Source: a virus. Taken from it: a stretch of 64,000 nucleotides of DNA. Shown piece by piece: positions 5,909-61,994 of the stretch (position 1 is the first letter of the stretch; each line of letters starts with the position of its first letter). A model generated the notes under the pieces. The model was not told the DNA's origin. It worked only from the letters and a program-made list of their open reading frames with translations, and did no database searches. Position numbers and translations under genes: made by a program. The stretch lies in the IMG/VR virus record IMGVR_UViG_3300032287_001952, positions 4,261 through 68,260 of that record; one strand, 5' to 3'.

Positions 5909-5915
5909 TTAGTTT

Positions 5916-31000: not shown

Positions 31001-31064
31001 TGGGTCTACAATCGTGTATTCTGCGTTTGCCGAGGCTCCCTTTAAATATGCGAGGGCTAGGTAA
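28011..31064 (+). CDS. LamG/concanavalin A plus SPRY domain virion protein
   Basis: RSLRFN, FRDPTAWYH, DFTIEGW, GKWYCE, FSPDLVWIK, GFRPK and AFAEAPFK motifs. Confidence 0.85.
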   Translation: MSWPVLPYGFLGTQGSSETDTYQVPRSLRFNGTSKYLTRTFLTPTNNKIFTYSCWLKPALLSTTPRLGIFMASNAGASSMFGLEFTATTQTLSVWDSSISTTVGSIVTSQVFRDPTAWYHLVMAVDTTQATAANRVKLYINGAQITSFSSASYPALNANPYMNSAVQHSIGSWFPYAVGYYDGYMAELNFVDGQALTPSSFGETESVTGRWRPISYTGTYGTNGFYLPFSRNQAPQELGIDQKTGSFTSATGGLPILNQSQRFLTSGVASDSNASSLVLALPLDTTANLTADQSPTGRTASTKSVTNASVTATAGVYEYYGTGSALFNGTTSRLTVPNSADFQFGTGDFTIEGWINSVALKANGIFAKCSTDSSWTAGWALEISSGYIGFYDGVAGVRYNGATNLMAVNTWYHVAWSRQSGSLKTFVNGNLVSTNTITSNFSPTVSFIIGNDITTNTYALNAYFQDVRIYKGVAKYTAAFVVPNTNDFIPGGSPTFSVTPYATNDSLVDSPTIYGTDTGVGGEVRGNYATLNPINQFKGTILNGNLSTNAGLTSSFATIGMSSGKWYCEMYVTAVGTESSLGVTRGLNATQYMGTSADSYGYYMSGPFYNNATTTSSGASWTTGDTIGAAFNADSGTLIFYKNGVLQGTAFTGLTSGPYFFGCNGRANDVTMNFGQQTYKYAAPSGYKALCSTNFPTPAVPRSSAAMDIVTYTGTGASLANSSLGFSPDLVWIKSRSAAADHAVYDSVRGVTKDMAANTTSAETTQAQGLTSFDASGFTIGTLAKINTASATYVAWAWDESVTAGFDIVSYVGNGTNRTISHNLGVTPTCMIVRDRTSAAYDWVYYNVGMNTTPQNGYMALNSSIAYTALAGIWNNTAPTSSNFSLGTNTAVNNTGDNYIAYLWADVAGFSKFGSFVGNGAADGAFVYCGFRPKYVLLHNATTGTYLWQVYDGTRDTYNVVGKTLYPNATAAEGADASLDFLSNGFKCRSASYINDSGSTIVYSAFAEAPFKYARAR

Positions 31065-31065
31065 T

Positions 31066-31362
31066 ATGTGGATTCTCCCAAACAACCAAATCATCAGCGT
31101 TCCGCAAAACGTTGTTATCAACGATATCCAACACCCACAGACCATATTCTACGGCTGGTCTAAAGAGCAACTTTTAGGCATTGGAATACGGGCATACCAC
31201 CCAGGAAATGCCCCAGAAGGGTATAGAGTTACAGCCGCTAGAACAGAGGTTGTGGATGATGAGGTTTACGAGATTTTTGACCTTGAGCAAGTACAAGAAC
31301 CAGAACCAATCGAAGAGCCAACCCAAGAACTAACCGAAGAGCCTTCCACTACAACACCTTGA
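31066..31362 (+). CDS. Fibre partner protein
   Basis: Start at ATG 31066; IQHP..F..WSKEQL..IGI motif. Confidence 0.6.
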   Translation: MWILPNNQIISVPQNVVINDIQHPQTIFYGWSKEQLLGIGIRAYHPGNAPEGYRVTAARTEVVDDEVYEIFDLEQVQEPEPIEEPTQELTEEPSTTTP

Positions 31363-31396
31363 CAAAATGGATGCATCAAACAAAATAGAGCACCCT

Positions 31397-31711
31397 ATGT
31401 TAGAGGCTATTTCCAAGTATCTTGCAAGCAAAATCCCAATGTACAGAGAGGTGGACTCAAAAGCTTTAGTGGTAGACTCACTTATGAGCGGTGGTCTTTT
31501 TACCAAAGAGGACGGGGTTTTGGGGCTATCCAAGATCGAGGAAGGCTTGTGGGAAGTTTTGTTCTTTGCGGCTGAGAGCAAGGAAGCTCGTAAATCCCTA
31601 ATTCGTGAGGCCGCCAAAAAACTTGGTAAGATTTCTATTATGTTCTATAGGCCAAAACACGAAGGTCGTGAAAAGACCTATTCCTACAAGTACTGGATGA
31701 GGCTCGCTTAA
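31397..31711 (+). CDS. Hypothetical protein preceding the ejection genes
   Basis: Start uncertain (31367 or 31397); TTGACA-N16-CAAAAT favours 31397. Confidence 0.5.
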   Translation: MLEAISKYLASKIPMYREVDSKALVVDSLMSGGLFTKEDGVLGLSKIEEGLWEVLFFAAESKEARKSLIREAAKKLGKISIMFYRPKHEGREKTYSYKYWMRLA

Positions 31712-31712
31712 T

Positions 31713-32624
31713 ATGGCAAGTAAACCTAAAAAACCACAATTGGAGCAATACACGCCTCCAGACATCTCGACATCGCTTGACAAGTTCATTGCCCAAGGAG
31801 CCAAGTTCCCTGGGATGCAGGATACACTGACCCAGTCAGCCGCTGAATCGCTCAAAGCAAAAGAAGCCTTGTTCCCAGGCTACATGGGAACCCTCGGCCA
31901 AGCTTGGCAATTGGCTCAGTCTCGTAGTGAGGGGTTGGTTGACCCAGAGACAGCGAAACGTGTTTCTGAAATGGCGGCTCAATATGGGTTTGCTACTGGT
32001 ACTGGTCCGGGTTCAGAGCAGATGGGTTTACAAGGGGCGAAGCAGTATGGGCTGACCGCTGTGGGGTTACAAGATTCTGGCATGCAGATTGGTGCTGGTC
32101 TTCGCGCTGAGGGAAATGCTATGATGCCGTACCAAGCCATCAACCTTGCGTTTACTCCTCAAGCTATTCGAGCTGAAGATCTGTCAATTGGCCAAGCCAA
32201 CACTAACATTCGTAACCAGCAACAGATGGTAAACTACCGATACGACCAGCAATACGGTGGAAATCCTTGGGCTGGTATTGCTGGTGGTTTGCTTGGTGGT
32301 GGTGCTGGGTTTGCTGTTGGAAACGCAATCGCTCCAGGAGTTGGTGGCTTACTCGGTGCTGGCATGGGTTCACAACTCGGTGGTGGAATGGGTGGAGTAT
32401 TTGGTGGAGCTCAGAGCCAGCAACTTGGTGGAATGTTTGGTGGGCTTGGGCAAAGTCTTGGGACTCTTGGCGGGTTACAAATGCTCAAACAAATCGGTGG
32501 CGTCCCAACAAATAACATTGGGCTATCTCTAGGATCTTCTCTTGGATCTTCTGGTAACTACCAAGGAGCCGCAGGATTTAACGGGGAGAATTATTCTCTC
32601 TTCCCCCAATTTAAACTAAAATGA
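31713..32624 (+). CDS. Internal virion/ejection protein 1 (glycine zipper)
   Basis: Q/G/A rich with long GxxxG arrays; first of three genes of increasing size. Confidence 0.65.
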   Translation: MASKPKKPQLEQYTPPDISTSLDKFIAQGAKFPGMQDTLTQSAAESLKAKEALFPGYMGTLGQAWQLAQSRSEGLVDPETAKRVSEMAAQYGFATGTGPGSEQMGLQGAKQYGLTAVGLQDSGMQIGAGLRAEGNAMMPYQAINLAFTPQAIRAEDLSIGQANTNIRNQQQMVNYRYDQQYGGNPWAGIAGGLLGGGAGFAVGNAIAPGVGGLLGAGMGSQLGGGMGGVFGGAQSQQLGGMFGGLGQSLGTLGGLQMLKQIGGVPTNNIGLSLGSSLGSSGNYQGAAGFNGENYSLFPQFKLK

Positions 32625-33751
32625 CGCCCGCTGAATATGGATTTGCGGTAGGCCAACAGATGGCCGCCACTGGGGACAAGTACCTCATGGGCATTCGTAC
32701 TGGTCAAGCCCAGCAAGAGCTTAGCCTTCGCGAGAAGGCTTTCCAAGCCGAACAAGACTGGAACAATCGCCGATATCCGTTGATGGAAAAACAACTGGGT
32801 ATTCAAGCTGATGCCTTAAAAATCCAACAGCAGCAACAACAGACAGCTCTCGATATGCAGAATGCAAATATGAGGGCTACGGCAGAGATCTCCCCCCATC
32901 TTGCAGAACTAGATGTTATCGCTAGAGCTGGGGATGCTGGTAAACTTTCGAGTTACCAGATCCCAGATATTAAGGTTGATACTGGCAACCCTTTGATCGA
33001 TAGCTACGCCTCGACTCTCGCAAGACAAGGTGTTGCCAAGTACCAAAAACAACTCCTAGAGAGCAACCAAGTTTTCAAGACTTGGAACGATGCCGCGGAC
33101 AAGGCTCTTTCTGTTGCGAATAGGTACGACACGCCAACTCCTCTTAAGATGCAACTTATGGAGATGGCTCCTAGGTTGCGTAGTGGTGGTTTCAATGCTC
33201 TTACAGACTTCGAGAAGTACAATCTGTTGCCATACGCCGATAAGACTGCCTACGCCTATAGCCCAGAAAGGCTTGGGATGATCAAGTTGCAACAAGACAT
33301 TACTAAGAGCCAAGAGGAATCTGACACAAAACGTCTTGCGGCATTGGGCAAGATTACTGGAAACATCTTTGTCACGCCAGAAGTCCAACAAGCCACAAGT
33401 GAAGAAATCACAACGATGCTTAAATCCGGCAAGAGCAGAGCTCCATCTGGTGGGCTTATGCCAGAGCAACCAAGTGCACCAAGTGCAGCGGTTCAAGCAC
33501 CAGCTCAAAAAGATCTTAATATGTTTGCGACAAACTTTAAGCAAGGTGCAAATGCAATTCGAAGCGGAACAAGTGCTTTGGATGTTATTAGCCAATTGTC
33601 CGATAACTTGCTCAAAACTTATGGTAAACCCGTAACCGCAAAGAACAAATTAGCGGCTCAAGTCGAAGTACTTAACCTTATGCGTGCAAACGGGATTGAG
33701 CTCCCATTCACGGAAGAAGACTTATCTAGTACTAGCCAAACCGAAGAATAA
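32621..33751 (+). CDS. Internal virion/ejection protein 2
   Basis: Q/A-rich helical protein, ATGA-coupled. Confidence 0.6.
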   Translation: MTPAEYGFAVGQQMAATGDKYLMGIRTGQAQQELSLREKAFQAEQDWNNRRYPLMEKQLGIQADALKIQQQQQQTALDMQNANMRATAEISPHLAELDVIARAGDAGKLSSYQIPDIKVDTGNPLIDSYASTLARQGVAKYQKQLLESNQVFKTWNDAADKALSVANRYDTPTPLKMQLMEMAPRLRSGGFNALTDFEKYNLLPYADKTAYAYSPERLGMIKLQQDITKSQEESDTKRLAALGKITGNIFVTPEVQQATSEEITTMLKSGKSRAPSGGLMPEQPSAPSAAVQAPAQKDLNMFATNFKQGANAIRSGTSALDVISQLSDNLLKTYGKPVTAKNKLAAQVEVLNLMRANGIELPFTEEDLSSTSQTEE

Positions 33752-33768
33752 CGATACAATAGCGTCTC

Positions 33769-36700
33769 ATGGCTCAGACGATCCCAACGCCTGGTAGTGA
33801 CGCAGTAGTAGCTTCTCAACCCTTGCCTGCTGGTGAATTCCCAGGCCTTGTAGATGCTCTAGGGCTTACTGAACAGACGACAAAACTTTCCGAGGGCTTC
33901 TCTGGTTTGGGTAGCCTAAAGCTTTCCGAGCCAATGACGGATTCTGAGAAGGCTCTTGAGAATCCTTTCTTAAAACTACCTAAAGCCAATCCTAAAGATT
34001 TCATTGATACTGTTAGAAAGGATTGGGAAATCGGTCAAGAGGGCGTCAATATTGATATGGCCACTGACGATTTCGCAACGCAGGTTTTAACGTCTGGTCA
34101 GCCGGGAGACTACAGCCAGTTACAAAACAAGCGTAAGGCTTTGGCGAAATCACAGTACTTTAACCAAGCCGACAATCTGGCTAGCCGAGCTGTCCACGGA
34201 ACTGTGCAGATGTTGCCACCGATGGCTCAAGGACAATTGTCTGGTATTGAGAAGGGTGTTGAACGTGGGATGCAGATGGGACTTATTGGGTCTTCTGGGT
34301 TTATTGCTGGGCCAGAGGTTGGTGCACCGATGGTTACTGCGTTTACGGGTGTCGGAGTTGCTGGTGGTAACCTAGAGGGCTCTTTCAACTACTGGACAAA
34401 GCAAGGCCGAGGAGCGTCGTTTGCGGAGTTGGTAGACGCTGGTGTGAACCAAGTCACTGCCGCAAATATCGCTCAATTTGTTGGCCCAGTTTACGCGGCT
34501 ATTGAATATGCTCAGGTTGGAAAACTCTTGGATGTTGTAGGGGGTAAAAAACTTAAGGGTGGTTTATTGCGTGGGGCAATGCGACAACTTGCGAAGGTTG
34601 TCCCCGCTGGTGCTAAAGTTGCCGCAGAGAAAGTAGCTCAAGTTTCGGCTAGGCCACTTGTAAGGGGTGCTGTCGACGTTGCTGGTGATATATTGGTACA
34701 AGCTGGTGAAGAAGCGGCTCAAGGTGCCGTGTCTCAAGCTGGTACTGAATACGGAAAGACGCAACAACAGCTGATTGCCCAAGGTGCTCGTGATGGGGCT
34801 ATGGAAGTGCTCGCAAACCTAGACCTACCAGAAGCTTCTAAACAAGTACTGTCCCGTGGTTTTGACGAGTTTGCAAGTAGCATTGGGCCGATGGCGGTTC
34901 TTACTGGTGGTGCAAAGGGGACGAACTTCCTTCGTAAAGCCTCATGGGATGGGTTTGTATCCCTAGCGAACGGGGACATCCAGAAAGCCGCAGATCAGCG
35001 TGATGCTGTGGCTAAAGCGGGAGCTCCTCAGACTGCACAAGCTTTGGCTGAAACTGTCTTAACGGAGCCAAGTTCGGTTAAGCCGACAGCAGCGACTGTC
35101 ACACCGACAGCTCCAGTGGTTGCCCCTATCGACGAGCCAGCTCTTGACGCTGAACTCGAAGCCGCTGGTCAAGCACCAGTAGAAGTCGAACAGCCCGAAG
35201 CTCCACAGCCTACTGTGGGTCTCCCTGGTGATGAGCTTGGTGCCAGGATCTTCTCGAACATTCGTTCCCGTAAGCCGATTGCTAAAGCTGATCTTGACCA
35301 GGTTGGTGGATTCTCGTTGTCTTCCGATTGGAAGCTGAACGAAGAGACGGGTAACTTCGAATACCAAGGACCAGTTTATGAAAGAAAAGAAGCTCCGCAA
35401 GTTTCAGTCGCAAAAGCAGAAGCCGCCACAATCGAACAGCCAAAAGTCAAAGCTCCCAAAGCTCAAGCCGTCGCTCCTATCGAAGCCGTTAAGCCAGAGC
35501 CTACTCAAAAAGGTGCAGAAGCTATACCTACTTCATTAGGTGTAAAAGTTTTTCAAGCTCCAGACGGAACTTGGGGCTATCAATTTGATTTTCCAAGTTG
35601 GCGAACAACAGAAGAAGGTATCGAATCAGTAAATAAATCTTTTAATCAAAATCAAGGGATCGCCACAAAAGAAGAAGCTTTAGCTTTAGCAACTGAAGGT
35701 AGAAAAAAAGCGATGGCTGGCACAATAAAAGAAGACGAGAGAGTAGCCACAGCACTAGAAAAACGGGGTGATGTACAAAAAGATGATTTACGGAGGGCTA
35801 GAAAATATCGCAAGGCCGCTGAAGAAGGCCGTAAACTATACGAAAAAGAATACCCAGAAGGAACTGCACCGAAGGTCGAAGCTCCTAAAGTTGAAGCACC
35901 GAAGGTTGAGGCTCCTAAAAACCTAGAACAGTTTATAAATAACTTGCCAACATTTAGTCCCGCTATGAAAAGCGGAGAGAGAGATAAACAACGTTTTAGG
36001 CAAGCTTTGGGCCTGTTGAAAAGCAAAAAGACAATTACCAAAGCAGTTCTCCAAAAAGAACTTAATCTGGGCTCGAATTATGCGGATTGGTTAATGGAAC
36101 AATTAACTCTCTCTGGCGCGGTAAGCGAGCAGATATCTGGTAAAGCACCAAAGGTTGAGGCTCCTAAAGTCAAACAACCAGCTCTTCCGAGGTGGGAAGA
36201 AGTCCAGAAGAACAAGGATCAGATCAAGTTCCTCAAGTCCGTTTTCAAGAAGGCAAACGCCAAGCTTACCAAAGAACAGCAAGTAGCCCCCAAGGTTGGC
36301 TGGAAGCGGAAGGATTTCTACTCGGCTCTGGAACGGATGTATGGTCAGCTCACTCAGCTTGAGTTCAAGCAACCTGAGCAAGTTGCACCACCAGCACCGA
36401 AGGTTGGCGAAGCCCAGAAGCCAACTGCGATCAACGAGGCCGAGCAACGCAGAAAGCTCAAGCTTGCTAACCTGCTAAAGGTATTCGGAAACAAGGATCT
36501 CGATGGTGACCAAACTCTCTTCCGTGATATCGCTATGGCTCAAGCTCGAAAAGTTGCATCGCAGATTGCCACACAATTTCAAAACATAACTGACCCAGAC
36601 GGAGAGATCTACAATGGGTTGATTTCGGCTATTGCCACCCGCCTTAAAAAATCTTTTGATAACAAGACACCAGTATTCTTCAACGAAGCTGGTGAGCCGA

Positions 36701-39700
36701 TTGCTATCAATGACGAGTCAGTAAAGAAGTGGCTGATGAAAGCCGCAGATCGTGCTGGACGAGACGCCGCAAGACGCCAATCCGCACAGAGAGAAATCAA
36801 TATCGAGTTTGGTGGCAAGCCAGCCGAAGGAGTTGTTACTCAACCTGAAGCCGCCAAGGAAGAGGCCAAGCCAGAGGGTATGCAAGTCAAAGAGGTTGCT
36901 CCAGAAGTCAAGGAAGAGCCCCGTGGAATTCGAGCAATTCGAGAAGCCGCTCAAGCTATTCGGGAACAGAGCAGCCCAGAAGCAAAGCTTGTTTTGGATT
37001 GGATCGTGTCTCAGTTGGTTGGGGAAGACTCGGCGTTGGGCAAGATCAAGACCTACAAGGAACTCGCAACCTATCTGTCCAAGGTCGCTAAACGGACGAT
37101 CAGCGACAAACGAGTTGGGTTGACTGTAAACGATGTTGTTAAGAAGCTGGCTGACAATCTTTCGGAGATCGGAATTAAGGTAAACGTAGAAGCCCTTGAG
37201 ATGGCACTTAGCCCCGAGGGTCAGAAAGCCAAGGAACGTCTTGCGGCTGAGGAAGCCAAGGCGAAAGCCTCTCGTGACGAGAGAGTGGCTAAGGCGAACC
37301 TATCCGATCGCGCTAGAAATCTTCGTTCTGGTTATGCAGTAAAAGAGAGGCTTGTGGATGCGGTTGCATCAGCAACCCCAGAAAACAGAGCGAGAATTCA
37401 AAACGAAGTCATATCGTTGGCAGAAGAAGATCTTCTAGCCGATGACGACATCAACAACAGACTCGATAACATCGAGAAAGGATTACCGAATGAAAAGCCA
37501 GCAATTGGACAACCTGTTTCCCGGCGTAGACGCCGAGGCGTTAAACAAGCTAAAGAAGGCGAAGTTCTCGGCGGAACTGGAGAAGGCGTCGAAGGTGCAC
37601 GGGGGACTACCGGCCCTGTCGCAACTGCTGAAGGACAACCCCAACCTGGGGCACGAGGAGCTGAACCAGTCAGTCCACGACCTAGCGGAGCTGGACAGCA
37701 AGTGGGCGGAAAACAGCAAACAACTACGAGAAATGTTTCCGTTGACGTAAAGTTATCTGAAAACAATAGAAGCCCTGCGGTAAAGACTTTGGTCGAAACT
37801 GCCACTTCAAACGGAGTTCCAGTCACATTACAAGATTCTCCAGAAAGTGGATCGGCTGTTGGTGTAGACACCAATCAAGTCGAAGGACAAGAAGTACCGA
37901 TCATCCGAGTTAACCAGAACAAGCTTAAAGAAGTTCGTCGAACACTTGGGCCAAAGGCTTTTGCCGAATGGTCTTGGAGAGCTATCAACCAAGAGATTAT
38001 CCACTTTAGGCATCTCAAGCTTCTTGAGCGTCTGGCCAAAGAGGAAGGTACTGATTACAAGAGCTACCTCAAGAAAGAAGCCAAGAGGATCGTACAGATC
38101 ATCAAGAGGCAGCGTGGTCTTCGCAAGAGGATCGAGGCTATCTACAACAACGGCGAGAAGATGGATGACTTCAACCTTGCGTTCGAGTTCACCCGAATGC
38201 TTGTCGAAGAGAAGATGATGGGCGGAATTACAGAGTCCTCCTATATGGACATCGCCAAGGTTCTTAACTCTGTGGATGCCGAAGGTCGAGGATTTATCTT
38301 TAGGTTTATGGAGCTTGTTCGGGATTTGATGTACGGATTGACTGGGCGTACCGCAGCGGAGACCAAGTTCCTTCGTGCAACGGCTGACGCTATCATCAGC
38401 GAGCAACGCAAAGTTATGCGGGACTTATACAACCCGACTGAAAAACTCCCCGTACAAGTAAATTTCTATACACCAAAGGAAAAGGTTATCGTTGGTTCAG
38501 CCGCTGACCGCAAAGCGTCTGAAGAGGAGATCAAACAAGATAGTGGCTTGAACCGAGCCAGTATGGCTTTCCTACGTGAATACGCCAGAGAGCTCGGAAT
38601 CAAGGAGCCTATGGGTCAGCGGAAGATGGAGGTTCGTGACGAAAAGACTGGTAAGATTTCAATTAAGAAACTCTCGTTCCCAGTTTGGAAGAAGCCCGAC
38701 TACGCAAAGGCGATCAAAGAGAAGCTCAAGGAACTCGGTAAGAAGCCAAAGGAACTTGGTGCCGCAATGCCTATGCGGTTCAAGACCGAGTATGCCTTCC
38801 AGCAGATCGATCGATCATTTGGGGCTAAGAGGGGAATCTTCAAGGGTCTGACTGTCGATAACAACGATACGCTTCCCTGGGAGAATCTGAAAGCGAAGAT
38901 CCTTAAGGGGACGAGTAAGGCTGAAGCCAATTGGGTTCTTCCGACAATGGAAGCTCTTGTCCGAAACGGACGTGTCAACGTTGATATGGCTGTTGAGGCG
39001 ATGCAAGCTTTGGCGAAAAACAAGATAACCGTAAAAAAACTTAGTGAAGAAACAACAGCTATTCAAAATCAACCAAAAGAAATTCAAGCTTTCATTAGGC
39101 TAGAAGAAGCTAAGAACCAAATTAGGCATGAAGCTGAATCGCAATTTACAGACGTAGAAGAAGCTATCAGAATTGCTGGAAGTTTACTGTATTTAGATAC
39201 CTACGACATATTTTCTAAAAATAAATTGCTAATGGATGATTACCGCTATCGCCAAACAAAGCTTGAAATAGAGGAAACACTTAAAAATGGTCTAAATAAT
39301 ACTTCTTTTGACGAACGAGAAATAAAAAAGCTTGGGGATAAGTTAGCAAACGTCTACGCATCTTTTGCAAAAGATCTTTATAATTTGGATAGTAGAGATT
39401 ATCTTTCATCGTTTGGGTTTGGGAGATCACAAATAGAGGCTGTGGATCAGGCATTTTCTATCGTAAGCAATCTTAAAAATGCAGACGAGCAACAGAAAGT
39501 TTTTGCAAGAATAGGTTTCTATATAGCAAGATCGGGAGGGATAGAGGTATCTGACTTGGGATTAGACCAAAGAGCATCCGCAAGATATAAATTTGTGAAC
39601 CCAAAGCCTTTTTCGGAAATGGAGGATGTGCGGGAAATTTTGGTTAAGACCCCAATTGGTGCTGTAGCTAAAGCAAAATCACACTTCGAAGATAAAGATG

Positions 39701-42700
39701 TTGTTGGTTTTGGGAGAATGTACACAACAAAACAAGGTGATAAAACTGTAACATTTTTATTCGAGGCACAAACGGATGCGTCAACGTCACCCTTAAACGA
39801 GATGGCAGACGAAAACCATCCAATGACCGCTCTGGATTATACCCCGGTATTTGAAGCAGAACTTGAAGACTTGAAAAACGCTTTGCAAGAAATCGTCGGA
39901 GAAAAACGACCTATCTATATGGACGAGGTTGGGAATCTTGCGTACAACGGAAATTTCAAGTCAATCACACCAACCTCAGTTACATCGAAATACACAATTG
40001 CTAGACATAAAGAAGGTAATCTTTACGAAGTTAATGGGGATCTAGGTTTTCATATTCTCGAAAAGTCTAGAACAGATAAAAATTTGGCAAATAGGGTAAG
40101 GCCATATTTAAAAGATAGCCAAACAGCTTCCATGATTGAGTGGGATAGGATGTTAACAGAAGCCGCTCCTCTGATAAGTGCATACGAATCACTCGTATTA
40201 AAGAACGCTATTGCGGATGCCATATCTAAAAATCACGATGCTATTGCAATTACCGACGATGGAACGGCAGCAATGACAGAGGGTCATCCGCAAATAAATG
40301 ACGGCATGCGGGCTCACTATGGGGTTCGAAATGGGAGTCTTCATAACTTAGCTAAAAAGCTTACTGGAGATACTGGAACTCCATTTAATGACGGATCTTC
40401 GATTTATGTGTATGAGCAGGAACAAGCCGATAAACTCGAAACACCATTCGAAGTTTACAGATTCCCGAAGAAAGAGGTAACTGGGGTATCCTATAGCCTG
40501 GATAAAGTGAAGGCTCTCGGGGATGCAAGCGATGTTTACAATATCCTCGGAGCCGCATTGCCAACCGATCGGCCTTACTGGCTGAAAGATGACGGAGAGG
40601 TTCTTGATGTCGAAGAGAATGCTCTCGTCGATATGAACTCAATCGGTAGCCACTCCGAAGCCGCAGTTCAGTTCCTCCAGGAGAACGATCCAGAGAACCC
40701 TTTCTTGATGGAGTGGTCTCTTTTAGATCCGTTAGAAAAGAAGGATCGTCAGCAGTTGCCAGTCCAAGAGATGTTCAACAGAGGTTGGCTCCGTGTTATC
40801 GGTGACGGGTTTAACTTGTTCTTTGAGGGCAATCCGAACAAGACCCAGTTAGACAAGCTGTTCGAGGCCGCAATCGAGGATGAGGTTAAGCTGATTCACG
40901 ACAAGACCGGATTGTCGGGTAGGCCAAAATCTAATCTACTATATGAGCCACCGCTCGAGGACGAACTTAACGCCGCAATGCCTCGTCGGGGCTTCTCTTC
41001 TAGTGAGCCTAGATTCAGTAAGTCTTGGAAAGCTCTTCCAGATTCCGTAGCTGGTTTGACTGAAGTATACAAAATGAAGCGTGGAACTAACGATGTCCGC
41101 CTATACCGAGATGAGATGGGCGATACATTCGTAGTCAAGCGTGGGCAATCGCAGGAGCAATTTGAAAATGAAGTAGCCGCCGACAATGTTTATCGAATTC
41201 TAAACTACCCAGTGCCCCCTTCGAGGCTGATCACAGATGAGAATGGTGAAACAGCCAAGATCGCCAATTACGTGGCTGGTCCGATACTCGCAGATTTCCA
41301 AGAGAATATGGAAGAAGCAGACCCAGATGCTGTTAAAACAGTGTTTGAGGAACTTGGTGATGGGCTTTTGATTGACGCCTTCTTGTTTAACTATGACGTC
41401 CTAGGGGAAGGTCTGGACAACATTGTTGTCGCTCACGAAGAAATTACAGAAGAAGACGGGCTGGCATTCCCAGAGCCGTTGATCAAATACACGGCATACA
41501 GAATCGATAATGGCGGAACTCTGGACACTCGGGCAATGGGTCTCAAGAGAGACGAACCATTCTTCTACGACTCGTTCTCTAGGCTGGCCGACAAATACCC
41601 GCAGTTTAATCTCACAGCCACGGATCTTGTGGCACAGCTTTCCGATATCATACTCAACAGCGATGCTATTCTAAATGCAATCCCAGCCAGACTACGACCT
41701 ATGATGGCTCAAAGGATCCAATGGATGGCAGATCAGCTAAGTGCGGTGGACACAATCCCTTCAGCAATCGGGTACTCTGACGAGGAGGTCACAGCACATT
41801 TCGCCAAATTGGCTAAGGAGATGGACTCCATTAAGGTTGTTCGGAACGCTCAAGGAGAGCTGATAAACGAAAAGACTGGTGAGCCTTCTAGGATTTATCT
41901 AATCGACACAAACGGAAAAACAATTGGCTTTATCCCGAAGTCCGAATTTAGGTACAAGCTGGAGAGAACTAAAGCTTTCAAGATGTGGTTTGGGGATTGG
42001 GAGAATGCACCAGAAGCTTTGGGGACAAGCAAGATGCTTGATGAGGCTGGTGAGCCCATGATGATGTATCACGGGACAAACTGGACTACGAAAGAGTCGA
42101 TGTACATGTTTAAGGACGACATCGATAAAGAAACACAAGGGTTGAATCTATACCGCAGACGTTTCTCGCAAGGCAACCTATTCCGAGGAACCTGGACTTC
42201 AACAAGCCGTAAGTTCTCCGAGGACTGGGCAAACGAAACCTCGGCTGGGGAATACGCTCAACAGGTTGTCATACCAGTATACGTAAAGAGCACAAACCCA
42301 TTTGACCCACGTAACTCAGATCACAACGCCAAGTTGGTAAACTACCTTGAAGAGAAGTACTCTGCTGATTCTGGGGTCAACGCCTTTATCCCGACTCGTG
42401 ATATGCGTGTGGCTATGGAGTTCGGATTCTACGACTGGTCTTACTTTGAAACGACTCGCCCAGAGTACCCATCCATGGGTTCAGACTTTGAAGAGATGGA
42501 AGAAGACTCTCGTCGTAAAGAGTTCTTTGCGAAACATCCATATCCAGTTCTTGAAGCAATTATTAATCTTGGGTTCGACGGACTATGGGTTAGGGAAAAA
42601 GGTCTTGGGTATTCTGGGTCTCTCGAAAGTGGCCCAAAGAATTTAGTTCAAGAACTGGAGATCATTCGTAGGAGTGATGACAAGAGCACGGAGAAACAGA

Positions 42701-45700
42701 CGATCCAAAATTTGAAAGAAGATGTCATCGCTTACAATAACAACTCGGTCTGGAATCATTTGTCCTTCCGATCTGACGGCATCAAGTCATCGGCTAATAC
42801 GGGTAAGTTTAAGGCTGATAAACGTAAAAAGTTCAAGCCTTACCAGGAAGCCAAACGTTTTGTAAACTTAGTAACCCGTAATGGTAAGACCCTCTGGAAC
42901 GAGTTCCAGAAGGGTGGTAAGACATTTGCTTCCTACGACTCAGCAGAGAACCTAGTAACTTACGCCTACTCAGATCCGAGTACTCTGGCAAAGGCTGGAA
43001 TCGAGAAGACTGAGATGAAGAACGGGGTTGTGTTCTTTAGTGCTCGGTCGGTTGAGGGTGTGCGTAGCCCAGACCGCAAGCCTACCGATATTCTCGGAGC
43101 CGCGATGCCCCGCCAGTTTGGAGTTCGTATTAGGGATAAGATGCAGGCCGATGCTTACGAGAGGCTTAAGAACTTAACTTACGAGCCGATCCCGGATAGT
43201 ATGGTTCAAGAAGAAGCCGAAGCGTATCTAGAGAAACACGGAATCCGTGGTGCTATGGATGCTACAATTTCCAAGTCTAGTCCGCTCGAGCACGGATCTC
43301 GTGAGCTGTTGGCTCAGATGATTATCCTAAAACTTAACGAGCAGTATAGGAAGACCAAGGACGCAAGAGTTCTAGAAGAGCTGATCGACTACACCGATAC
43401 ATTCTTATCGATCACTTCTGAAGCTGGACGTGCTCTTAGGCAGTTATCTTTCTGGGACAAGCTGTCACCCGAGGGGATGTTGATGCTCTACAAGAAGAAG
43501 CTGGATGAATCAAATCGTGAGACCCGTGACCGATTCAATGAATTTTTTGCGAAGGTAAAGCGTGAGCTATCGACGTTGCCAGCTGGAGCACTGGATCAAG
43601 CCTTGAAGAGTATGGAAGGTTTGCTGGGTAAAGCCGATAAAGCCGCAGAAGAATCTCGTAAGAAGCTTGCTACCAGCAACACTATGACCTTCTGGGAAAA
43701 CTTCTCAAAGCAGATTGGCGATAGCCTTGTCCAGAAATCTCGAGAGCAACTCGATATCGCTGAGGAAGAGCTTGCCCGTACCGCTGGTGGAGAGGCGACG
43801 CCCGAGGGTGAATTGGCTAAGAATAAGGTCAACAACGCAAAGACGATCAACCAGGCAGCTCAAGAAATGAGCCGCAATATCAAGCAGATGTTCCTAGCTC
43901 TTGCCAAAGAACAAGGTAAGAACATTCGCGATCCTCGGGTTATCACGGACGAAGAGTTCGCCAATAAGACAGACGAAGAGATTGCGAAGATTCAGCAAGC
44001 GGAGCGGGACTCTAAGCAAGCACAGAAGTTTACTGATATGTTGGCGAGATGGCCGAAAGCCTTGCAAGCTTGGCAAACGGCGACAGCTGCGATTCGTGCT
44101 CAGACATCCGTCAATCCAGAATTGGCTACTATGTTCCAGAGTTTTCTAGACCTCACTCTTGAGACTCCTTTTACGATGCCACAACTCAAACGATTCTTGT
44201 CTCTGAGAGGCGTTAAACTAGAAGACCTAATTCGTGAGCATTACCAAGAAGGGAAGTTGGCTCAAAACGCATACGATGTAGCAAGAGAGATGGTCGAAAA
44301 AGCGGGTCTTGGGGCATGGGAAGAAGAAATTGGGGTGGACGTAAAAGAGGGCGATAAGTTTTTTGAATACGAAAAGCGTGAAGAGGATATGGCTAAAGAA
44401 GAGCCATCTAAGCGTGCACCAACCAAATCAATGTCTGAGCGTCTTACGCAAGCCCTTGCGTCTCAAATTGAGAAATATGCAGAAGCGGAGACAGAAAAGA
44501 AGCTTAACCGATTGATTGATTCTTACGCTGACAAACGTCTTGAACCATCTCTCAAACGCTTTATGAAGCGTATGGTTCAGTACCAAGCTTTGGGTTTATT
44601 CAGCAACTCCTATGCCTGGAACGAGTTCCAGAAACAAGAAGGACTGGATAAAGTAAAGCCAGAGGTTGTGAATCAGATCCTCGATATTATGGGGAAAGCC
44701 CAGAAGCTTACCGGGTTTAGGAAAGAAGAGGCATACGCCGATGCCCTTTCACTTATCTCTTACCACACGAACACGGGCGTTTGGAACTTCACCAAGTCTT
44801 GGTGGTACTTGAGCATATTGTCGGGCTTCACTACTCAGGTCGCCAATATTGCGGGCAATGCCTACAACACGATGCTGTTGACTATCCCAACAATTGGTAA
44901 GCATCTTGTCGCTGTAACTGTTAACCCAGAGCGGAGTAAGGCAATCGTTAAACAAATGTTTAGGGCAATGTCTCTGTCGCTACAGGATTTTGGATACTTG
45001 CTCACGACTGGTAGGGTTGGAACTCGCAAATCAGATAACCCCTTCTTCTCGCGGGCAAGCACAGATTACTTCGAAGTTATTGCGAAGAATACCCCGTATC
45101 GAGCCGCAAGGATTTCTGCTACCACAGCCGCTATGGTGCGTAGAGTTATGTCGGCAGTTGATATGATGTTTTACAACTTTAACAAAGAAGTTTACCTATT
45201 TGATTCGGCATACAATGCCGCAAAGAAATCTGGGCTGAAGGGGTCCGAGGCTACAGCTAAAGCTCTTGAGGTAACTTTCCGAAGTTCGCAGGCGTTGCAA
45301 AACGCTCTCAACTTAGCTATAGGGGAAGGTTATGTGGTCGAAGGAGAACCTCTCGGGTTCTATAAAGCCTTAACCAAAATAGAATCCCCGAAGGCCAAAC
45401 TTGAACGGGCAAAACAAAAAATAGAGCAATCGATTCGTATCCAAGAGATCATCGACGCAAACGTTACTGGGTCTGCGGAGAGTTCAAGGGTTGCTATTGG
45501 GGCGCAAGTATACGGAGAAGAGCTTACGTATAACGAGGAGCCCAAGGGTTTCTTGGGTGCTGTGCATAGGTCTATCTCTGCCCTTTCGGTTAAGTATGGT
45601 TTGGTATCTGTGCCGATCCCTTTCACAAAGATCGTAGCAAACGTATGGAACCAAGGTCTCGACGCTGCTGGTCTCGGGATTTTTAGGTCTGGGAAGTTAG

Positions 45701-46803
45701 CCCACGGAAAATTGGCTAAAGCTTTCCCATTCCTTAAGGTTCTTGAACGATTCGAGATGAAAGGTCTTAAAGGTTCAGCTGACGAGGTTCAAGCTCAGAA
45801 GGATATGATGTTCGCAAGATCATTTAATGCTTTTGTCGCATTAGGTATTATTACACTCCTCGATCGGGTTCTTTGCGGTCAGTATGAAACTTATGGGTTT
45901 GAACTTTGCATAAACGGTCCTGGTCCTAAAGAGCCAGCACAAAAAGAACTTCTTAAGAATCGCTTAAGCTGGAAACCAAATTCTCTTTTCCTTCGCTTAC
46001 CAGGCATAGGCGGCTTCTATCTTAGTTATATGTTGTCGCCTTTGGCTATTCCGTTGGCTGGTTTCGGATTAATAAAGGATAACGAGATTTATAACTACTA
46101 CGCCAAGAAATCACCAAAGGACGCTTCTCTAGCTATGGCTCATAGACTGTTGACTGTTCCAATGGAGATGAACTTCTTGTCGGGTCTTGGGGATATGTTT
46201 GAAATCTTAAGCCCAAGTAACCCAGAGACCGCTCTTGCTAAAGCCAAGTCATTCCTTTCAAGAATGGGTTCATCAATGCTTGTCCCGAACTTCTTTAGGG
46301 ATGTCGACCAGCTTATTGTGTCTAGCCTGCCGGGTGTGCTTAACCCAAGGACGGCTAGAGAAGACATTATACAAGCAGCATTTATTTCGAATACCCCAAT
46401 CATTCGGCAAATGTACGGAAGTGCTGAGCTTGATATCTTAGGTCAACCAATTGAGATGACTTCACGAGTTGTAAGCGTTGCTGGGAAAGATACTTTGGTT
46501 GATGTACTCATCCAAAAGAATGCTCTCCCGACTGCTCCCAAAAAAGACAAATTGCTTGGTCTTGTCCCAATGGACGATACTCAATACGCACAGTATCGTG
46601 AATACAGAGCAAAACAACTTGGGGAAGATCTTAACACGCCAGAAATGATTGAAACCCTATCTAGAATGGAACCTGGAATGGCTCAGATGTATGTTCAGAA
46701 ATATACCCAGAAAGCTAGCCAATTGGCTAAAGCAAAGATTCTGAGGGGAAGCCCAGAGATACTAAAAGAGGCAAGAGAAACAAAAGCTAAACAGATTAAA
46801 TAG
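33769..46803 (+). CDS. Giant polyvalent ejection protein (4344 aa)
   Basis: Hydrophobic G/A-rich N-terminus with EEAAQ; central effector domains (see findings); helical C-terminus with LSG..T...N..GN and PF.K...N motifs typical of large ejection proteins. Confidence 0.85.
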   Translation: MAQTIPTPGSDAVVASQPLPAGEFPGLVDALGLTEQTTKLSEGFSGLGSLKLSEPMTDSEKALENPFLKLPKANPKDFIDTVRKDWEIGQEGVNIDMATDDFATQVLTSGQPGDYSQLQNKRKALAKSQYFNQADNLASRAVHGTVQMLPPMAQGQLSGIEKGVERGMQMGLIGSSGFIAGPEVGAPMVTAFTGVGVAGGNLEGSFNYWTKQGRGASFAELVDAGVNQVTAANIAQFVGPVYAAIEYAQVGKLLDVVGGKKLKGGLLRGAMRQLAKVVPAGAKVAAEKVAQVSARPLVRGAVDVAGDILVQAGEEAAQGAVSQAGTEYGKTQQQLIAQGARDGAMEVLANLDLPEASKQVLSRGFDEFASSIGPMAVLTGGAKGTNFLRKASWDGFVSLANGDIQKAADQRDAVAKAGAPQTAQALAETVLTEPSSVKPTAATVTPTAPVVAPIDEPALDAELEAAGQAPVEVEQPEAPQPTVGLPGDELGARIFSNIRSRKPIAKADLDQVGGFSLSSDWKLNEETGNFEYQGPVYERKEAPQVSVAKAEAATIEQPKVKAPKAQAVAPIEAVKPEPTQKGAEAIPTSLGVKVFQAPDGTWGYQFDFPSWRTTEEGIESVNKSFNQNQGIATKEEALALATEGRKKAMAGTIKEDERVATALEKRGDVQKDDLRRARKYRKAAEEGRKLYEKEYPEGTAPKVEAPKVEAPKVEAPKNLEQFINNLPTFSPAMKSGERDKQRFRQALGLLKSKKTITKAVLQKELNLGSNYADWLMEQLTLSGAVSEQISGKAPKVEAPKVKQPALPRWEEVQKNKDQIKFLKSVFKKANAKLTKEQQVAPKVGWKRKDFYSALERMYGQLTQLEFKQPEQVAPPAPKVGEAQKPTAINEAEQRRKLKLANLLKVFGNKDLDGDQTLFRDIAMAQARKVASQIATQFQNITDPDGEIYNGLISAIATRLKKSFDNKTPVFFNEAGEPIAINDESVKKWLMKAADRAGRDAARRQSAQREINIEFGGKPAEGVVTQPEAAKEEAKPEGMQVKEVAPEVKEEPRGIRAIREAAQAIREQSSPEAKLVLDWIVSQLVGEDSALGKIKTYKELATYLSKVAKRTISDKRVGLTVNDVVKKLADNLSEIGIKVNVEALEMALSPEGQKAKERLAAEEAKAKASRDERVAKANLSDRARNLRSGYAVKERLVDAVASATPENRARIQNEVISLAEEDLLADDDINNRLDNIEKGLPNEKPAIGQPVSRRRRRGVKQAKEGEVLGGTGEGVEGARGTTGPVATAEGQPQPGARGAEPVSPRPSGAGQQVGGKQQTTTRNVSVDVKLSENNRSPAVKTLVETATSNGVPVTLQDSPESGSAVGVDTNQVEGQEVPIIRVNQNKLKEVRRTLGPKAFAEWSWRAINQEIIHFRHLKLLERLAKEEGTDYKSYLKKEAKRIVQIIKRQRGLRKRIEAIYNNGEKMDDFNLAFEFTRMLVEEKMMGGITESSYMDIAKVLNSVDAEGRGFIFRFMELVRDLMYGLTGRTAAETKFLRATADAIISEQRKVMRDLYNPTEKLPVQVNFYTPKEKVIVGSAADRKASEEEIKQDSGLNRASMAFLREYARELGIKEPMGQRKMEVRDEKTGKISIKKLSFPVWKKPDYAKAIKEKLKELGKKPKELGAAMPMRFKTEYAFQQIDRSFGAKRGIFKGLTVDNNDTLPWENLKAKILKGTSKAEANWVLPTMEALVRNGRVNVDMAVEAMQALAKNKITVKKLSEETTAIQNQPKEIQAFIRLEEAKNQIRHEAESQFTDVEEAIRIAGSLLYLDTYDIFSKNKLLMDDYRYRQTKLEIEETLKNGLNNTSFDEREIKKLGDKLANVYASFAKDLYNLDSRDYLSSFGFGRSQIEAVDQAFSIVSNLKNADEQQKVFARIGFYIARSGGIEVSDLGLDQRASARYKFVNPKPFSEMEDVREILVKTPIGAVAKAKSHFEDKDVVGFGRMYTTKQGDKTVTFLFEAQTDASTSPLNEMADENHPMTALDYTPVFEAELEDLKNALQEIVGEKRPIYMDEVGNLAYNGNFKSITPTSVTSKYTIARHKEGNLYEVNGDLGFHILEKSRTDKNLANRVRPYLKDSQTASMIEWDRMLTEAAPLISAYESLVLKNAIADAISKNHDAIAITDDGTAAMTEGHPQINDGMRAHYGVRNGSLHNLAKKLTGDTGTPFNDGSSIYVYEQEQADKLETPFEVYRFPKKEVTGVSYSLDKVKALGDASDVYNILGAALPTDRPYWLKDDGEVLDVEENALVDMNSIGSHSEAAVQFLQENDPENPFLMEWSLLDPLEKKDRQQLPVQEMFNRGWLRVIGDGFNLFFEGNPNKTQLDKLFEAAIEDEVKLIHDKTGLSGRPKSNLLYEPPLEDELNAAMPRRGFSSSEPRFSKSWKALPDSVAGLTEVYKMKRGTNDVRLYRDEMGDTFVVKRGQSQEQFENEVAADNVYRILNYPVPPSRLITDENGETAKIANYVAGPILADFQENMEEADPDAVKTVFEELGDGLLIDAFLFNYDVLGEGLDNIVVAHEEITEEDGLAFPEPLIKYTAYRIDNGGTLDTRAMGLKRDEPFFYDSFSRLADKYPQFNLTATDLVAQLSDIILNSDAILNAIPARLRPMMAQRIQWMADQLSAVDTIPSAIGYSDEEVTAHFAKLAKEMDSIKVVRNAQGELINEKTGEPSRIYLIDTNGKTIGFIPKSEFRYKLERTKAFKMWFGDWENAPEALGTSKMLDEAGEPMMMYHGTNWTTKESMYMFKDDIDKETQGLNLYRRRFSQGNLFRGTWTSTSRKFSEDWANETSAGEYAQQVVIPVYVKSTNPFDPRNSDHNAKLVNYLEEKYSADSGVNAFIPTRDMRVAMEFGFYDWSYFETTRPEYPSMGSDFEEMEEDSRRKEFFAKHPYPVLEAIINLGFDGLWVREKGLGYSGSLESGPKNLVQELEIIRRSDDKSTEKQTIQNLKEDVIAYNNNSVWNHLSFRSDGIKSSANTGKFKADKRKKFKPYQEAKRFVNLVTRNGKTLWNEFQKGGKTFASYDSAENLVTYAYSDPSTLAKAGIEKTEMKNGVVFFSARSVEGVRSPDRKPTDILGAAMPRQFGVRIRDKMQADAYERLKNLTYEPIPDSMVQEEAEAYLEKHGIRGAMDATISKSSPLEHGSRELLAQMIILKLNEQYRKTKDARVLEELIDYTDTFLSITSEAGRALRQLSFWDKLSPEGMLMLYKKKLDESNRETRDRFNEFFAKVKRELSTLPAGALDQALKSMEGLLGKADKAAEESRKKLATSNTMTFWENFSKQIGDSLVQKSREQLDIAEEELARTAGGEATPEGELAKNKVNNAKTINQAAQEMSRNIKQMFLALAKEQGKNIRDPRVITDEEFANKTDEEIAKIQQAERDSKQAQKFTDMLARWPKALQAWQTATAAIRAQTSVNPELATMFQSFLDLTLETPFTMPQLKRFLSLRGVKLEDLIREHYQEGKLAQNAYDVAREMVEKAGLGAWEEEIGVDVKEGDKFFEYEKREEDMAKEEPSKRAPTKSMSERLTQALASQIEKYAEAETEKKLNRLIDSYADKRLEPSLKRFMKRMVQYQALGLFSNSYAWNEFQKQEGLDKVKPEVVNQILDIMGKAQKLTGFRKEEAYADALSLISYHTNTGVWNFTKSWWYLSILSGFTTQVANIAGNAYNTMLLTIPTIGKHLVAVTVNPERSKAIVKQMFRAMSLSLQDFGYLLTTGRVGTRKSDNPFFSRASTDYFEVIAKNTPYRAARISATTAAMVRRVMSAVDMMFYNFNKEVYLFDSAYNAAKKSGLKGSEATAKALEVTFRSSQALQNALNLAIGEGYVVEGEPLGFYKALTKIESPKAKLERAKQKIEQSIRIQEIIDANVTGSAESSRVAIGAQVYGEELTYNEEPKGFLGAVHRSISALSVKYGLVSVPIPFTKIVANVWNQGLDAAGLGIFRSGKLAHGKLAKAFPFLKVLERFEMKGLKGSADEVQAQKDMMFARSFNAFVALGIITLLDRVLCGQYETYGFELCINGPGPKEPAQKELLKNRLSWKPNSLFLRLPGIGGFYLSYMLSPLAIPLAGFGLIKDNEIYNYYAKKSPKDASLAMAHRLLTVPMEMNFLSGLGDMFEILSPSNPETALAKAKSFLSRMGSSMLVPNFFRDVDQLIVSSLPGVLNPRTAREDIIQAAFISNTPIIRQMYGSAELDILGQPIEMTSRVVSVAGKDTLVDVLIQKNALPTAPKKDKLLGLVPMDDTQYAQYREYRAKQLGEDLNTPEMIETLSRMEPGMAQMYVQKYTQKASQLAKAKILRGSPEILKEARETKAKQIK
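37490..37750 (+). CDS. Nested out-of-frame small protein (86 aa)
   Basis: AAGGA 7 nt upstream of the ATG; amphipathic helical sequence; the host frame becomes G/R/Q/P low-complexity over the same interval. Confidence 0.55.
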   Translation: MKSQQLDNLFPGVDAEALNKLKKAKFSAELEKASKVHGGLPALSQLLKDNPNLGHEELNQSVHDLAELDSKWAENSKQLREMFPLT

Positions 46804-46968
46804 CTGTCGGACTACAAACCTTAAGAAGTACATAGAGTACCCAATCAAAACGAAACTAAACAAAATGGTTATTGAAGCAAAGGCCGCCTCAAAGCAATGC
46901 AGTCCAAATGATTTGGGGTCATACGAAGGTTTATCTTCTACCAACTTAGATTGACTTTTCTTTTTCAT
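46762..46968 (-). CDS. Small membrane protein
   Basis: AAGGAG RBS; basic N-terminus followed by a TM segment. Confidence 0.5.
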   Translation of the reverse strand: MKKKSQSKLVEDKPSYDPKSFGLHCFEAAFASITILFSFVLIGYSMYFLRFVVRQLFNLFSFCFSCLF

Positions 46969-46988
46969 AATTTAATCTCCTTATAGTT

Positions 46989-47255
46989 ATGCCACTTTCA
47001 CGAGTCAACAAGGATAAAATGCCTTGCAATAAACCACGCCGAAGCACACGCCCCGGCAAAAAGATGATGGTTAAAGCTTGTGAAGGTGGCAAAGAAAAAC
47101 TGATTCATTTCGGGGATAGCTCTATGCAAGACTATCGCCAACACAAAAGCAAGGCCAGACGACGAAGCTACTGCGCTAGGTCTGGTGGTATCAAAGGAAA
47201 GAACAGCAAACTGTCTGCGAACTATTGGGCACGTCATAAACTTTGGAGTTGCTGA
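46989..47255 (+). CDS. Small basic protein (DUF5754-like)
   Basis: KK.MV...IHFG...DY..HK..RR.SY.AR...SANYWA...LW; promoter TTGACT-N16-TAATCT. Confidence 0.65.
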   Translation: MPLSRVNKDKMPCNKPRRSTRPGKKMMVKACEGGKEKLIHFGDSSMQDYRQHKSKARRRSYCARSGGIKGKNSKLSANYWARHKLWSC

Positions 47256-47256
47256 T

Positions 47257-47736
47257 ATGGGTTTAGGTACTGCTAATCCTGGAAGCTCGAAACTGGAAGG
47301 TATCTTTGGGAAGGGTGCTCTCAAGGGCAAGGCTGGCATGGTTGTGGAGTCTGCGGTCAAGGCTGGCATCGATCCTAACTTATTTGCGGCTGTAATCGCT
47401 CACGAAACTGGTGCGGGAACCAGTAACGCTATCATCAATTACAACAACCCAGCGGGTATTATGGACCCAAAATCCAAGTGGACGAAGCTCAAGAAGTTCG
47501 GAAGTCTGGCAGAAGGGTTAGCCTATTCAGCCAACAACTTAAAGAAACGGGTAGATCAAGCTGGTGGTGACTTTACTAAGCTGGCTCAGATTTATGCGCC
47601 AGTCGGTGCGGAGAACGATCCTAAAGGGCTCAATGCTAATTGGACAACGGGGGTTAGCAAATTCTACAACTTGCTTGCAAGCGGCGAAACAGACCAGGGT
47701 GCACCCGCAGAAGAACAAACCCAAGAAGCACGATAA
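47257..47736 (+). CDS. Lysozyme-fold glucosaminidase-like peptidoglycan hydrolase
   Basis: AVIAHETG, NNPAGIM, IYAP.GA.NDP and W..GV motifs. Confidence 0.75.
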   Translation: MGLGTANPGSSKLEGIFGKGALKGKAGMVVESAVKAGIDPNLFAAVIAHETGAGTSNAIINYNNPAGIMDPKSKWTKLKKFGSLAEGLAYSANNLKKRVDQAGGDFTKLAQIYAPVGAENDPKGLNANWTTGVSKFYNLLASGETDQGAPAEEQTQEAR

Positions 47737-47787
47737 GAAGTTTGATTAAGAACACTGGTAAGATTACCAGTAAGATCGGTATGTGCT

Positions 47788-48012: not shown

Positions 48013-48055
48013 ATAACCAGCTTGAAAGTATAAGCAATTGTGTCAAGCTGAGTAA
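48013..48055. promoter_or_regulatory. Symmetric bidirectional promoter
   Basis: Both strands read TTGAxA-N16-CAAGCT-N6-GTG. Confidence 0.6.
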
Positions 48056-49425: not shown

Positions 49426-49426
49426 A

Positions 49427-61463: not shown

Positions 61464-61748
61464 ATTTAATTACTCTTTCTTTGTTAGTTGTTTTAGTTTT
61501 GTTCAGAGGAACTTCTGTTCCCCTTGCCAACCGAACAACGAAACCGACCGAAAAAAAGCCGACCGACCCCCCGCCAAAAACCCGAAGGGTTTTTGAACCC
61601 CAAAGTATAAGATGATATAAGATAGAGAATATACCCTGGGGGAGTAGTACCCCTCTTTATTATTACAAGGAATCACGGGGGGTGATGTAAAAAATTTTTT
61701 TTATATTTTGGGCTCTGGACAAAACGCCCGAACCGATACAATGCACTT

Positions 61749-61994
61749 ATGCCTCTTGGACGTAACTACGCTATGGAGTACCGCCGGTACCACAGTTCGC
61801 GAAAAGCGAAACAAGACAGAGCGGCTAGAAACGCTGCCAGGAGAAGGTTGATATCGAAAGGTCGAGTTCGGAAGGGCGACGGAAAAGACGTCGACCACCG
61901 GGACGGAGATCCACGCAACAATCGTGCGGGGAACTTGAGGGTTATGTCAAAAGGTGCCAATCGTGGCCGGGACAATAACTCTTGGAGATACTAA
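61749..61994 (+). CDS. HNH-type small basic protein
   Basis: KGDGKDVDH.DG.P.NN..NLRV.S..ANR. Confidence 0.8.
   Translation: MPLGRNYAMEYRRYHSSRKAKQDRAARNAARRRLISKGRVRKGDGKDVDHRDGDPRNNRAGNLRVMSKGANRGRDNNSWRY

Follow-up and report, generated by a model that had tools for sequence, protein, structure and literature searches.

A predicted sigma-factor-like module embedded in a giant polyvalent-type protein of an uncultured phage

Phages are known to begin transcription either with the unaided host polymerase or with a whole polymerase brought in the particle. The idea of particle-borne transcription machinery, or of particle-borne RNA polymerase modifiers, applies to N4-like (Schitoviridae) and crAss-like phages, with their virion RNA polymerases, and to T4 Alt, and phage polyvalent proteins are predicted to be packaged, injected and able to 'jump-start transcription' (Iyer et al. 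2017, PMC5512222). Phages SU10 and phiEco32, in turn, encode a sigma factor of their own, which works with the host core polymerase (as described in passages of PMC4281155). In this study, a module resembling the extracytoplasmic function (ECF, group 4) sigma factors is described within a giant protein of 4,344 amino acids (aa), encoded by an uncultured phage. The virus record (IMGVR_UViG_3300032287_001952) comprises 68,260 bp, and the window, i.e. the whole stretch analysed here (64,000 nucleotides), corresponds to its bases 4261-68260. The candidate cargo would be a specificity or docking subunit, whereas in N4-like and crAss-like phages and in T4 Alt it is a whole polymerase or a polymerase-modifying enzyme.

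The module and its carrier gene consist of the following features, given in window coordinates. Alignment A1 comprises residues 893-1275 of the giant protein and nine homologous segments (10 rows), A1 residue 1 being protein residue 893.

33769..46803, plus strand: giant open reading frame (ORF) of 4,344 aa, polyvalent type, a single uninterrupted frame
36445..36810, plus strand (residues 893-1014; A1 1-122): domain 1, sigma2-like helical domain (predicted fold)
36799..36912, plus strand (A1 119-156): inter-domain linker, disordered in the model, with a conserved acidic motif
36913..37182, plus strand (residues 1049-1138; A1 157-246): domain 2, sigma4-like helix-turn-helix (HTH) domain (predicted fold)
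37213..37479, plus strand (A1 257-345): domain 3, conserved helical domain directly after domain 2

The original prediction had placed a sigma2 and a sigma4 domain at window positions 36502-37173, which correspond to residues 912-1135 of the giant ORF. All strings quoted in its support are present in frame and in the stated order, those of the first half (DGDQTLFRDI, ARKVA, DPDGEI, RLKKSFD and SVKKWLMKAADRAGRDAARRQ) as well as those of the second (IREAAQAI, SPEAKLVL, TYKELATYL, ISDKRV and VKKLADNL). An AlphaFold2 model built from the 10 rows of A1 (mean predicted local distance difference test score, pLDDT, 77.9) contains two confident helical domains and a disordered linker, with block values of 81-94 in domain 1, below 50 in the linker, 80-88 in domain 2 and 87-93 in domain 3. 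In this predicted model, domain 1 has the sigma2 domain fold (regions 2.1-2.4) and domain 2, located C-terminally to it, the sigma4 fold with its HTH (regions 4.1-4.2).

Searches of structure libraries with the model gave concordant results. Among the 48 rows listed by Foldseek against PDB, 40 were sigma chains (counted by entry titles), the best row being SigL (6dv9_F, probability 0.90); the alignments span 210-290 columns and therefore cover both domains, and no row in this library reached E ≤0.001. VIA-align against 48,161 representative chains named a sigma factor in 24 of 50 rows (counted by title) and matched domain 1 to sigma2 chains, domain 2 to sigma4 chains and both domains to whole ECF factors, with 6dv9_F aligned over 158 of 174 residues. 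The top row in BFVD was a phage sigma subunit (E 1.2e-2, probability 0.99); phage sigma factors ranked first there and, by our own count, 19 of 50 rows were named as sigma or RNA polymerase subunit. In the alignment-free ESM Atlas, the nearest named clusters of the whole module all belonged to PF04542, PF04545 or PF08281 (scores 0.94-0.95), and for domain 1 alone 18 of the 30 named neighbours were of the Sigma70_r2 set. The proposed sigma2 plus sigma4 fold was thus supported, with both domains modelled at 80-94 pLDDT and sigma factors ranked on top by Foldseek, VIA-align and BFVD; at the level of predicted fold, the likeness to sigma exceeds chance. The reading frame, its conservation, the predicted fold and the sigma2/sigma4 likeness of that fold are what the analysis shows.

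Residues 870-1190 match 13 giant proteins of 3,488-4,219 aa (E 1e-72 to 1e-191), and a single-sequence search of 1.84 billion representatives yielded 5 matching clusters, the farthest at 29.5-33% identity. No free-standing relative of the module was found, because profile A1 matched none of the proteins of 210-695 aa at E ≤0.01 (8,000 scored candidates) and the 5 representatives are all 1,891-3,583 aa long; the module segment likewise gave no tblastn match in the phage collection. Identity over the module is 45-55% in the relatives G001 and G012 and 27-36% in G002 and G003, and synonymous sites are saturated across domains 1-3 in all four comparisons. Invariant or nearly invariant in A1 are Q23, F26-R27-D28, E54-I55-Y56, P76, F79-N80, P178-E179, K181, D185-W186, Y204, L207-A208, S220, K222 and V224, and the invariant positions cluster at three sites, namely the long loop that joins helix 3 to helix 4 (P76, F79, N80, G83), SPE.K..DW and the recognition helix (S220, K222, V224). 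The linker carries the motif AEG.VTQPEAA.EEAKP, in which T132 and Q133 are invariant and P134 and E135 nearly so. In domain 3 the invariant residues are P257, E258, G259, L286, D288, R289, R291, R315, R317, E321, R339, L340, N342, I343, K345 and G346. The whole cassette spans about residues 900-1258 and is bounded by low-complexity linkers; those framing the module lie at residues 865-899, 1024-1057 and 1259-1325.

With the ECF sigma factors (such as RpoE of E. coli, SigR of S. coelicolor, SigL, SigH and SigK of M. tuberculosis and SigW of B. subtilis) the module shares the plan of sigma2, short linker and sigma4, a similar size (about 245 residues, with a linker of about 38), the predicted folds and motif parallels at region 2.1 (GDQ..F), in W-L...A...D..RR, at region 4.1 (SPE.K..L.W) and in the region 4.2 HTH. 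Unlike these factors, it is not free-standing, being embedded in a 4,344-aa protein, has no significant Sigma70_r2, r4 or r4_2 match, and possesses a conserved loop of about 17 residues between helices 3 and 4, an HTH turn longer by 6 residues and an extra helical domain. Its best viral structural neighbours are the phage sigma factors found in BFVD; free-standing phage sigma factors, of which the ECF-like phiEco32 gp36 and SU10 gp32 are further examples, are, like the module, phage-borne and much diverged. The sigma factors of phiEco32 and SU10 are products of separate middle genes made after infection, whereas the module lies inside a giant gene of the late virion block. A table of SU10 particle proteomics lists the ECF sigma with one peptide, and passages of the same paper claim no virion role for it (PMC4281155).

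The carrier has two features of polyvalent proteins, i.e. several unrelated domains in one very large chain, including the signature ART-PolyVal domain, and a gene located in a virion and packaging context. Polyvalent proteins described in the main text of PMC5512222 (Iyer, Burroughs, Anand, de Souza, Aravind 2017) are likewise giant multi-domain chains that bear ART-PolyVal and are encoded beside virion genes. The word 'sigma' is absent from that main text, and its supplementary domain lists may hold more; full-text searching of the literature turned up no account of a sigma module in a phage protein of the ejected or polyvalent kind. The following further features were recognized in the giant protein.

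42040..42348, plus strand (residues 2758-2860): ART-PolyVal ADP-ribosyltransferase (ART) domain, PF18760 (Pfam)
35986..36150, plus strand (residues 740-794): weak FtsK-gamma-like winged helix, PF09397, below threshold
about 38755, 40546, 40966 and 43093, plus strand: LGAAMP-like motifs, candidate processing sites

The ART-PolyVal match (E 2.8e-7) lies just above the cut-off (31.8 versus 31.2 bits), and precomputed annotations list this family for 12 of the 13 homologues. The PF09397 match, about 100 residues upstream of the module, is below its cut-off (E 0.0011; 19 versus 30.6 bits). The LGAAMP-like motifs, (E/I)L(G/N)AA(M/L)P, lie at residues 1663, 2260, 2400 and 3109, at apparent cassette borders, and the canonical zincin/peptidase motif HExxH occurs nowhere in the 4,344 residues. 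There is one strongly hydrophobic segment, near residues 4013-4037, and only 2 cysteines, both near residues 4036-4047; the seven listed homologues hold 0-2. Such extreme cysteine depletion fits a protein that has to stay unfolded or to cross an oxidising compartment. The gene is the last of the virion gene block, on the same strand as and downstream of the terminase gene (plus strand, assigned to phrog_2). The ART-PolyVal domain, the two cysteines and the position at the end of the virion block are consistent with an injected polyvalent protein, the packaging of which we infer.

Another ORF overlaps the giant gene just past domain 3. This nested ORF of 102 aa, in the +1 frame (window 37442-37750, plus strand), is open at the same place in all five genomes examined (G000, G001, G012, G002 and G003). 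Identity of its product to that of G000 is 61, 61, 51 and 51%, versus 47, 46, 39 and 39% for the main-frame linker rich in G, R, Q and P, and main-frame synonymous divergence is low across the nested ORF (0.23 over 33 codons) and saturated elsewhere. It is likely an overlapping gene or a frameshift product.

Taken together, we tentatively favour, at somewhat less than an even chance, the reading that the module is a diverged sigma-type unit of ECF plan, carried as polyvalent-protein cargo and most likely engaging the host RNA polymerase as a sigma factor or a tether. Phage polyvalent proteins have been proposed to be packed in the particle and to leave it together with the DNA; the giant protein would do the same, and the module would then engage the host core RNA polymerase, with the sigma2-like domain on the beta-prime clamp helices (located in the gamma subunit in cyanobacteria) and the sigma4-like domain on the beta flap. 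There it may either confer promoter specificity for phage DNA, as a true subunit, or tether the polymerase to the entering genome, working beside the ART of the same chain. When domain 1 (A1 1-122) was co-folded with RPOC1_SYNSC residues 200-400, a range that was guessed and may miss the clamp helices, the ipSAE values were 0.07 and 0.04 versus a mark of 0.32; this result counts neither for nor against binding. If the reading is true, bringing a specificity subunit for the host enzyme in the particle would constitute a third, cheaper route to phage transcription that needs no new protein synthesis, and it would explain immediate takeover by some phages that have no polymerase or sigma gene. 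A transcription-factor fold is added to the catalogue of polyvalent-protein cargo, and the defined 245-residue fragment together with one candidate promoter makes the idea testable in vitro without growing the phage. Should the module merely be a DNA anchor or a look-alike, it would add just one more ordinary entry to the cassettes listed for such giant proteins.

Several results weigh against this reading, and the first group concerns kinship with sigma factors. The Pfam Sigma70 families (PF04542, PF04545, PF08281) gave no match at E ≤10 in the whole protein, in a 300-aa segment or in the 10 rows of A1, and neither phmmer nor a profile search of PDB sequences found a sigma factor. Comparison by hhalign with RpoE, and with an alignment of three RpoE homologues and the six sigma-70-family members of E. 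coli, was not significant (probability 0.6-2.8%, pairwise E 0.016-0.09); the search for RpoE homologues had returned only relatives at least 86% identical, too narrow a set for a broad profile. The expected HHpred-type match to Sigma70_r2 and r4 was therefore absent from Pfam, PDB sequence searches and hhalign alike, and in sequence terms the sigma likeness falls short of significance. The register of the hhalign alignment is the expected one, GDQ..F...KVAS falling on RpoE regions 2.1-2.2 and TYKELA...ISDKRVG aligning with the HTH of region 4.2. In sigma factors, the residues of region 2.2 that bind the core are of the D-L-I/V-Q-E type. In the same non-significant register they would be replaced by G-E-I-Y-N(G/R), of which the family conserves E54, I55 and Y56, which differ from the sigma residues. 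Among the structural results, two DUF1048 chains equal the best sigma2 match, and in VIA-align domain 3 resembles only designed or coiled helical proteins. As none of the Sigma70 profiles matches the module significantly, the case for it is built from fold, domain order, size and motif register.

These negative results bear on a further explanation, in which two small helical domains that merely look like sigma domains serve as spacer, packing or capsid-targeting elements, through convergence or through old descent without retained function. It would account for the missing sequence link to any sigma family and for the relatives that manage without the module, yet in three libraries the two different domains each match their proper sigma counterpart, arranged in the ECF order and separated by a linker of ECF length. 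The alignment-free ESM Atlas concurs, the motif register is correct, and conservation is focused on the loop and recognition-helix positions. We consider this explanation clearly unlikely.

The second group of opposing results concerns the distribution and packaging of the giant protein. The terminase family comprises 63 loci in IMG/VR, and 5 of the 12 larger records examined carry the module. The complete relative G008 (terminase 83% identical) has a giant ORF of 5,241 aa without an A1 match, and G011 (terminase 80% identical) one of 5,132 aa, also without such a match; all these two ORFs share with the 4,344-aa protein is a weak likeness at the C-terminus.

L084 104-15829, minus strand: giant ORF of G008, with SNF2/ResIII, LysM and HATPase_c matches and several weak HTH matches

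Because G008 and G011 hold other cassettes, the module is a dispensable cassette and not a fixed part, and the different domains of a relative with 83% terminase identity argue for fast cassette turnover in the giant gene. Variation of cassettes between close relatives, as with SNF2/ResIII, LysM and HATPase in G008, is a trait shared with polyvalent proteins. Regarding packaging, PHROGs gave nothing significant and no structural family for the giant protein, and the C-terminal 865 residues, folded from 7 rows, reached a mean pLDDT of only 47, too poor to search; Pfam found no match above cut-off in the 7 rows of the C-terminal alignment.

The last opposing result concerns the need for such a factor. 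The original prediction had argued that the early region has no obvious TTGACA-type promoter and that no RNA polymerase gene is visible. The former does not hold, as sigma70-like elements precede both early genes: the leftward gene (61463) is preceded by TTGGCA-N17-TCTGAA, and the rightward one by the element listed below.

61715..61751, plus strand: promoter-like element CTGGACAAA-N13-TACAAT-N6-ATG, at the head of a rightward small-gene operon

The latter is consistent with the lack of PF00940 and PF04542 matches in the 68,260-bp record, of which the PF00940 search shows little given that its control was also silent; no RNA polymerase fold was detected either. Since sigma70-like elements precede each of them, the host primary sigma could serve both early genes, and the argument from need fails, early transcription being explicable by promoter-like elements without a phage sigma.

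The rightward element can be written as CT(G/A)GACAAA-N13-TACAAT-N6/7-ATG and, one G/A aside, is invariant in G000, G001, G004 and G002. It has a good -10, a leaderless-type start (ATG at 61749) and a -35-like TGGACA at a spacing of 15 nucleotides, and the full pattern occurs once in the window versus 0.58 occurrences expected by chance. As the one candidate site, 61715-61742 may be a target of the module and may equally be a host-sigma promoter, its looks being those of a primary-sigma promoter. In a more specific version of the favoured reading, the packaged sigma would dock on the host core and direct it to the sole invariant promoter, CTGGACAAA-N13-TACAAT, where the 15-nucleotide spacing would be poor for the host primary sigma, while the co-delivered ART would modify the host enzyme. 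Taken as a whole, this scenario is distinctly unlikely.

The element lies at the edge of a non-coding region of about 285 bp (61464-61748), which is strongly conserved in G001, G002 and G004. Within it, a hairpin, AAAAACCC-GAA-GGGTTTTT, shows compensatory changes (CCC/GGG, GCC/GGC, CCCC/GGGG), and the blocks CGACCCC(C)ACCGC, TATACCCCC and GGGGTGATGTAAAAAATTTTTT are invariant. The region may function as an origin or a packaging site, or may specify a small RNA or a bidirectional terminator. It is present in 3 of 3 module-bearing and 0 of 4 module-free relatives (all at least 90% complete). Kinship alone may explain this co-occurrence, because the whole early region is confined to the same subgroup. 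The relatives cannot be aligned over the intergenic stretch that precedes the virion operon (5785-5915).

The distribution of this region also bears on a reading in which the module contacts no polymerase. It would be a sequence-specific DNA-binding or anchoring unit whose HTH, perhaps with the FtsK-gamma-like winged helix, sits on a putative phage site and ties the giant protein to the DNA as it is packaged, ejected or protected. Within domain 2, conservation peaks in the recognition helix (S220, K222 and V224 invariant), the weak FtsK_gamma match lies about 100 residues upstream, and DNA-binding domains are frequent among the polyvalent proteins treated in the main text of PMC5512222; the conserved non-coding region of some 300 bp, found in 3 of 3 module-bearing and 0 of 4 module-free relatives at least 90% complete, could supply a site. 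However, such an anchor leaves the sigma2-like domain and the ECF-like order and linker unexplained, and the co-occurrence is confounded by kinship. We therefore regard it as somewhat unlikely.

A different timing is also conceivable, in which the freshly synthesized giant protein, whole or processed to an N-terminal piece, works as a late sigma or sigma-like regulator in the producing cell, before or instead of being packaged. Searching the 68,260-bp record for PF04542 revealed no separate sigma gene, and the nearest cultured terminase relatives are the E. coli phages PTXU04 and Pondi (best matches, about 25% identity). A match to SU10_adaptor, weak and below the cut-off, occurs in the tail block, and SU10 and phiEco32 run their middle and late genes with their own ECF sigma (according to passages of PMC4281155). 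The kinship with SU10-like phages is, however, very remote, the module lies inside a late gene and therefore could not start late transcription, and a repeat search of the window found no repeated phage-specific promoter word. Such a role in the producing cell seems very unlikely.

The surroundings of the giant gene were also inspected. Upstream of it lie tail-fibre-like and virion genes (PHROG matches), among them the following.

5916-7238, plus strand: protein of 440 aa with 65% identity to a structural protein of the virion in T4-like Synechococcus phages

The cyanophage counterparts of this protein include those of the Synechococcus myophages S-RIM8, S-RIM50 and S-WAM2, and the 65% identity hints at a host or gene pool common with marine cyanophages. 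A protein of 1,017 aa, also encoded upstream, is common to cyanophages, pelagiphages and a Methylophilales phage. From such gene sharing, our guess is that the host is a marine picocyanobacterium. The phage is distant from those in culture, with a best terminase match of about 25% identity, and megablast of 30000-50000 found no DNA match in the phage collection. Genes in minus-strand blocks encode a family A DNA polymerase, a helicase, a methyltransferase and an AAA ATPase. A DxDGD motif at residue 910 of the giant protein was considered as a hidden polymerase site and ruled out, as the motif varies in homologues.

The gene map was made by a greedy script, which is unreliable in small-gene regions and overlooked a minus-strand ORF of at least 675 aa (L008 3-2027) that runs past the start of the record. 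The 68,260-bp record carries a 123-bp direct repeat at its ends. Because of this ORF, the repeat probably reflects assembly overlap in a circular or permuted map instead of marking a physical genome end.

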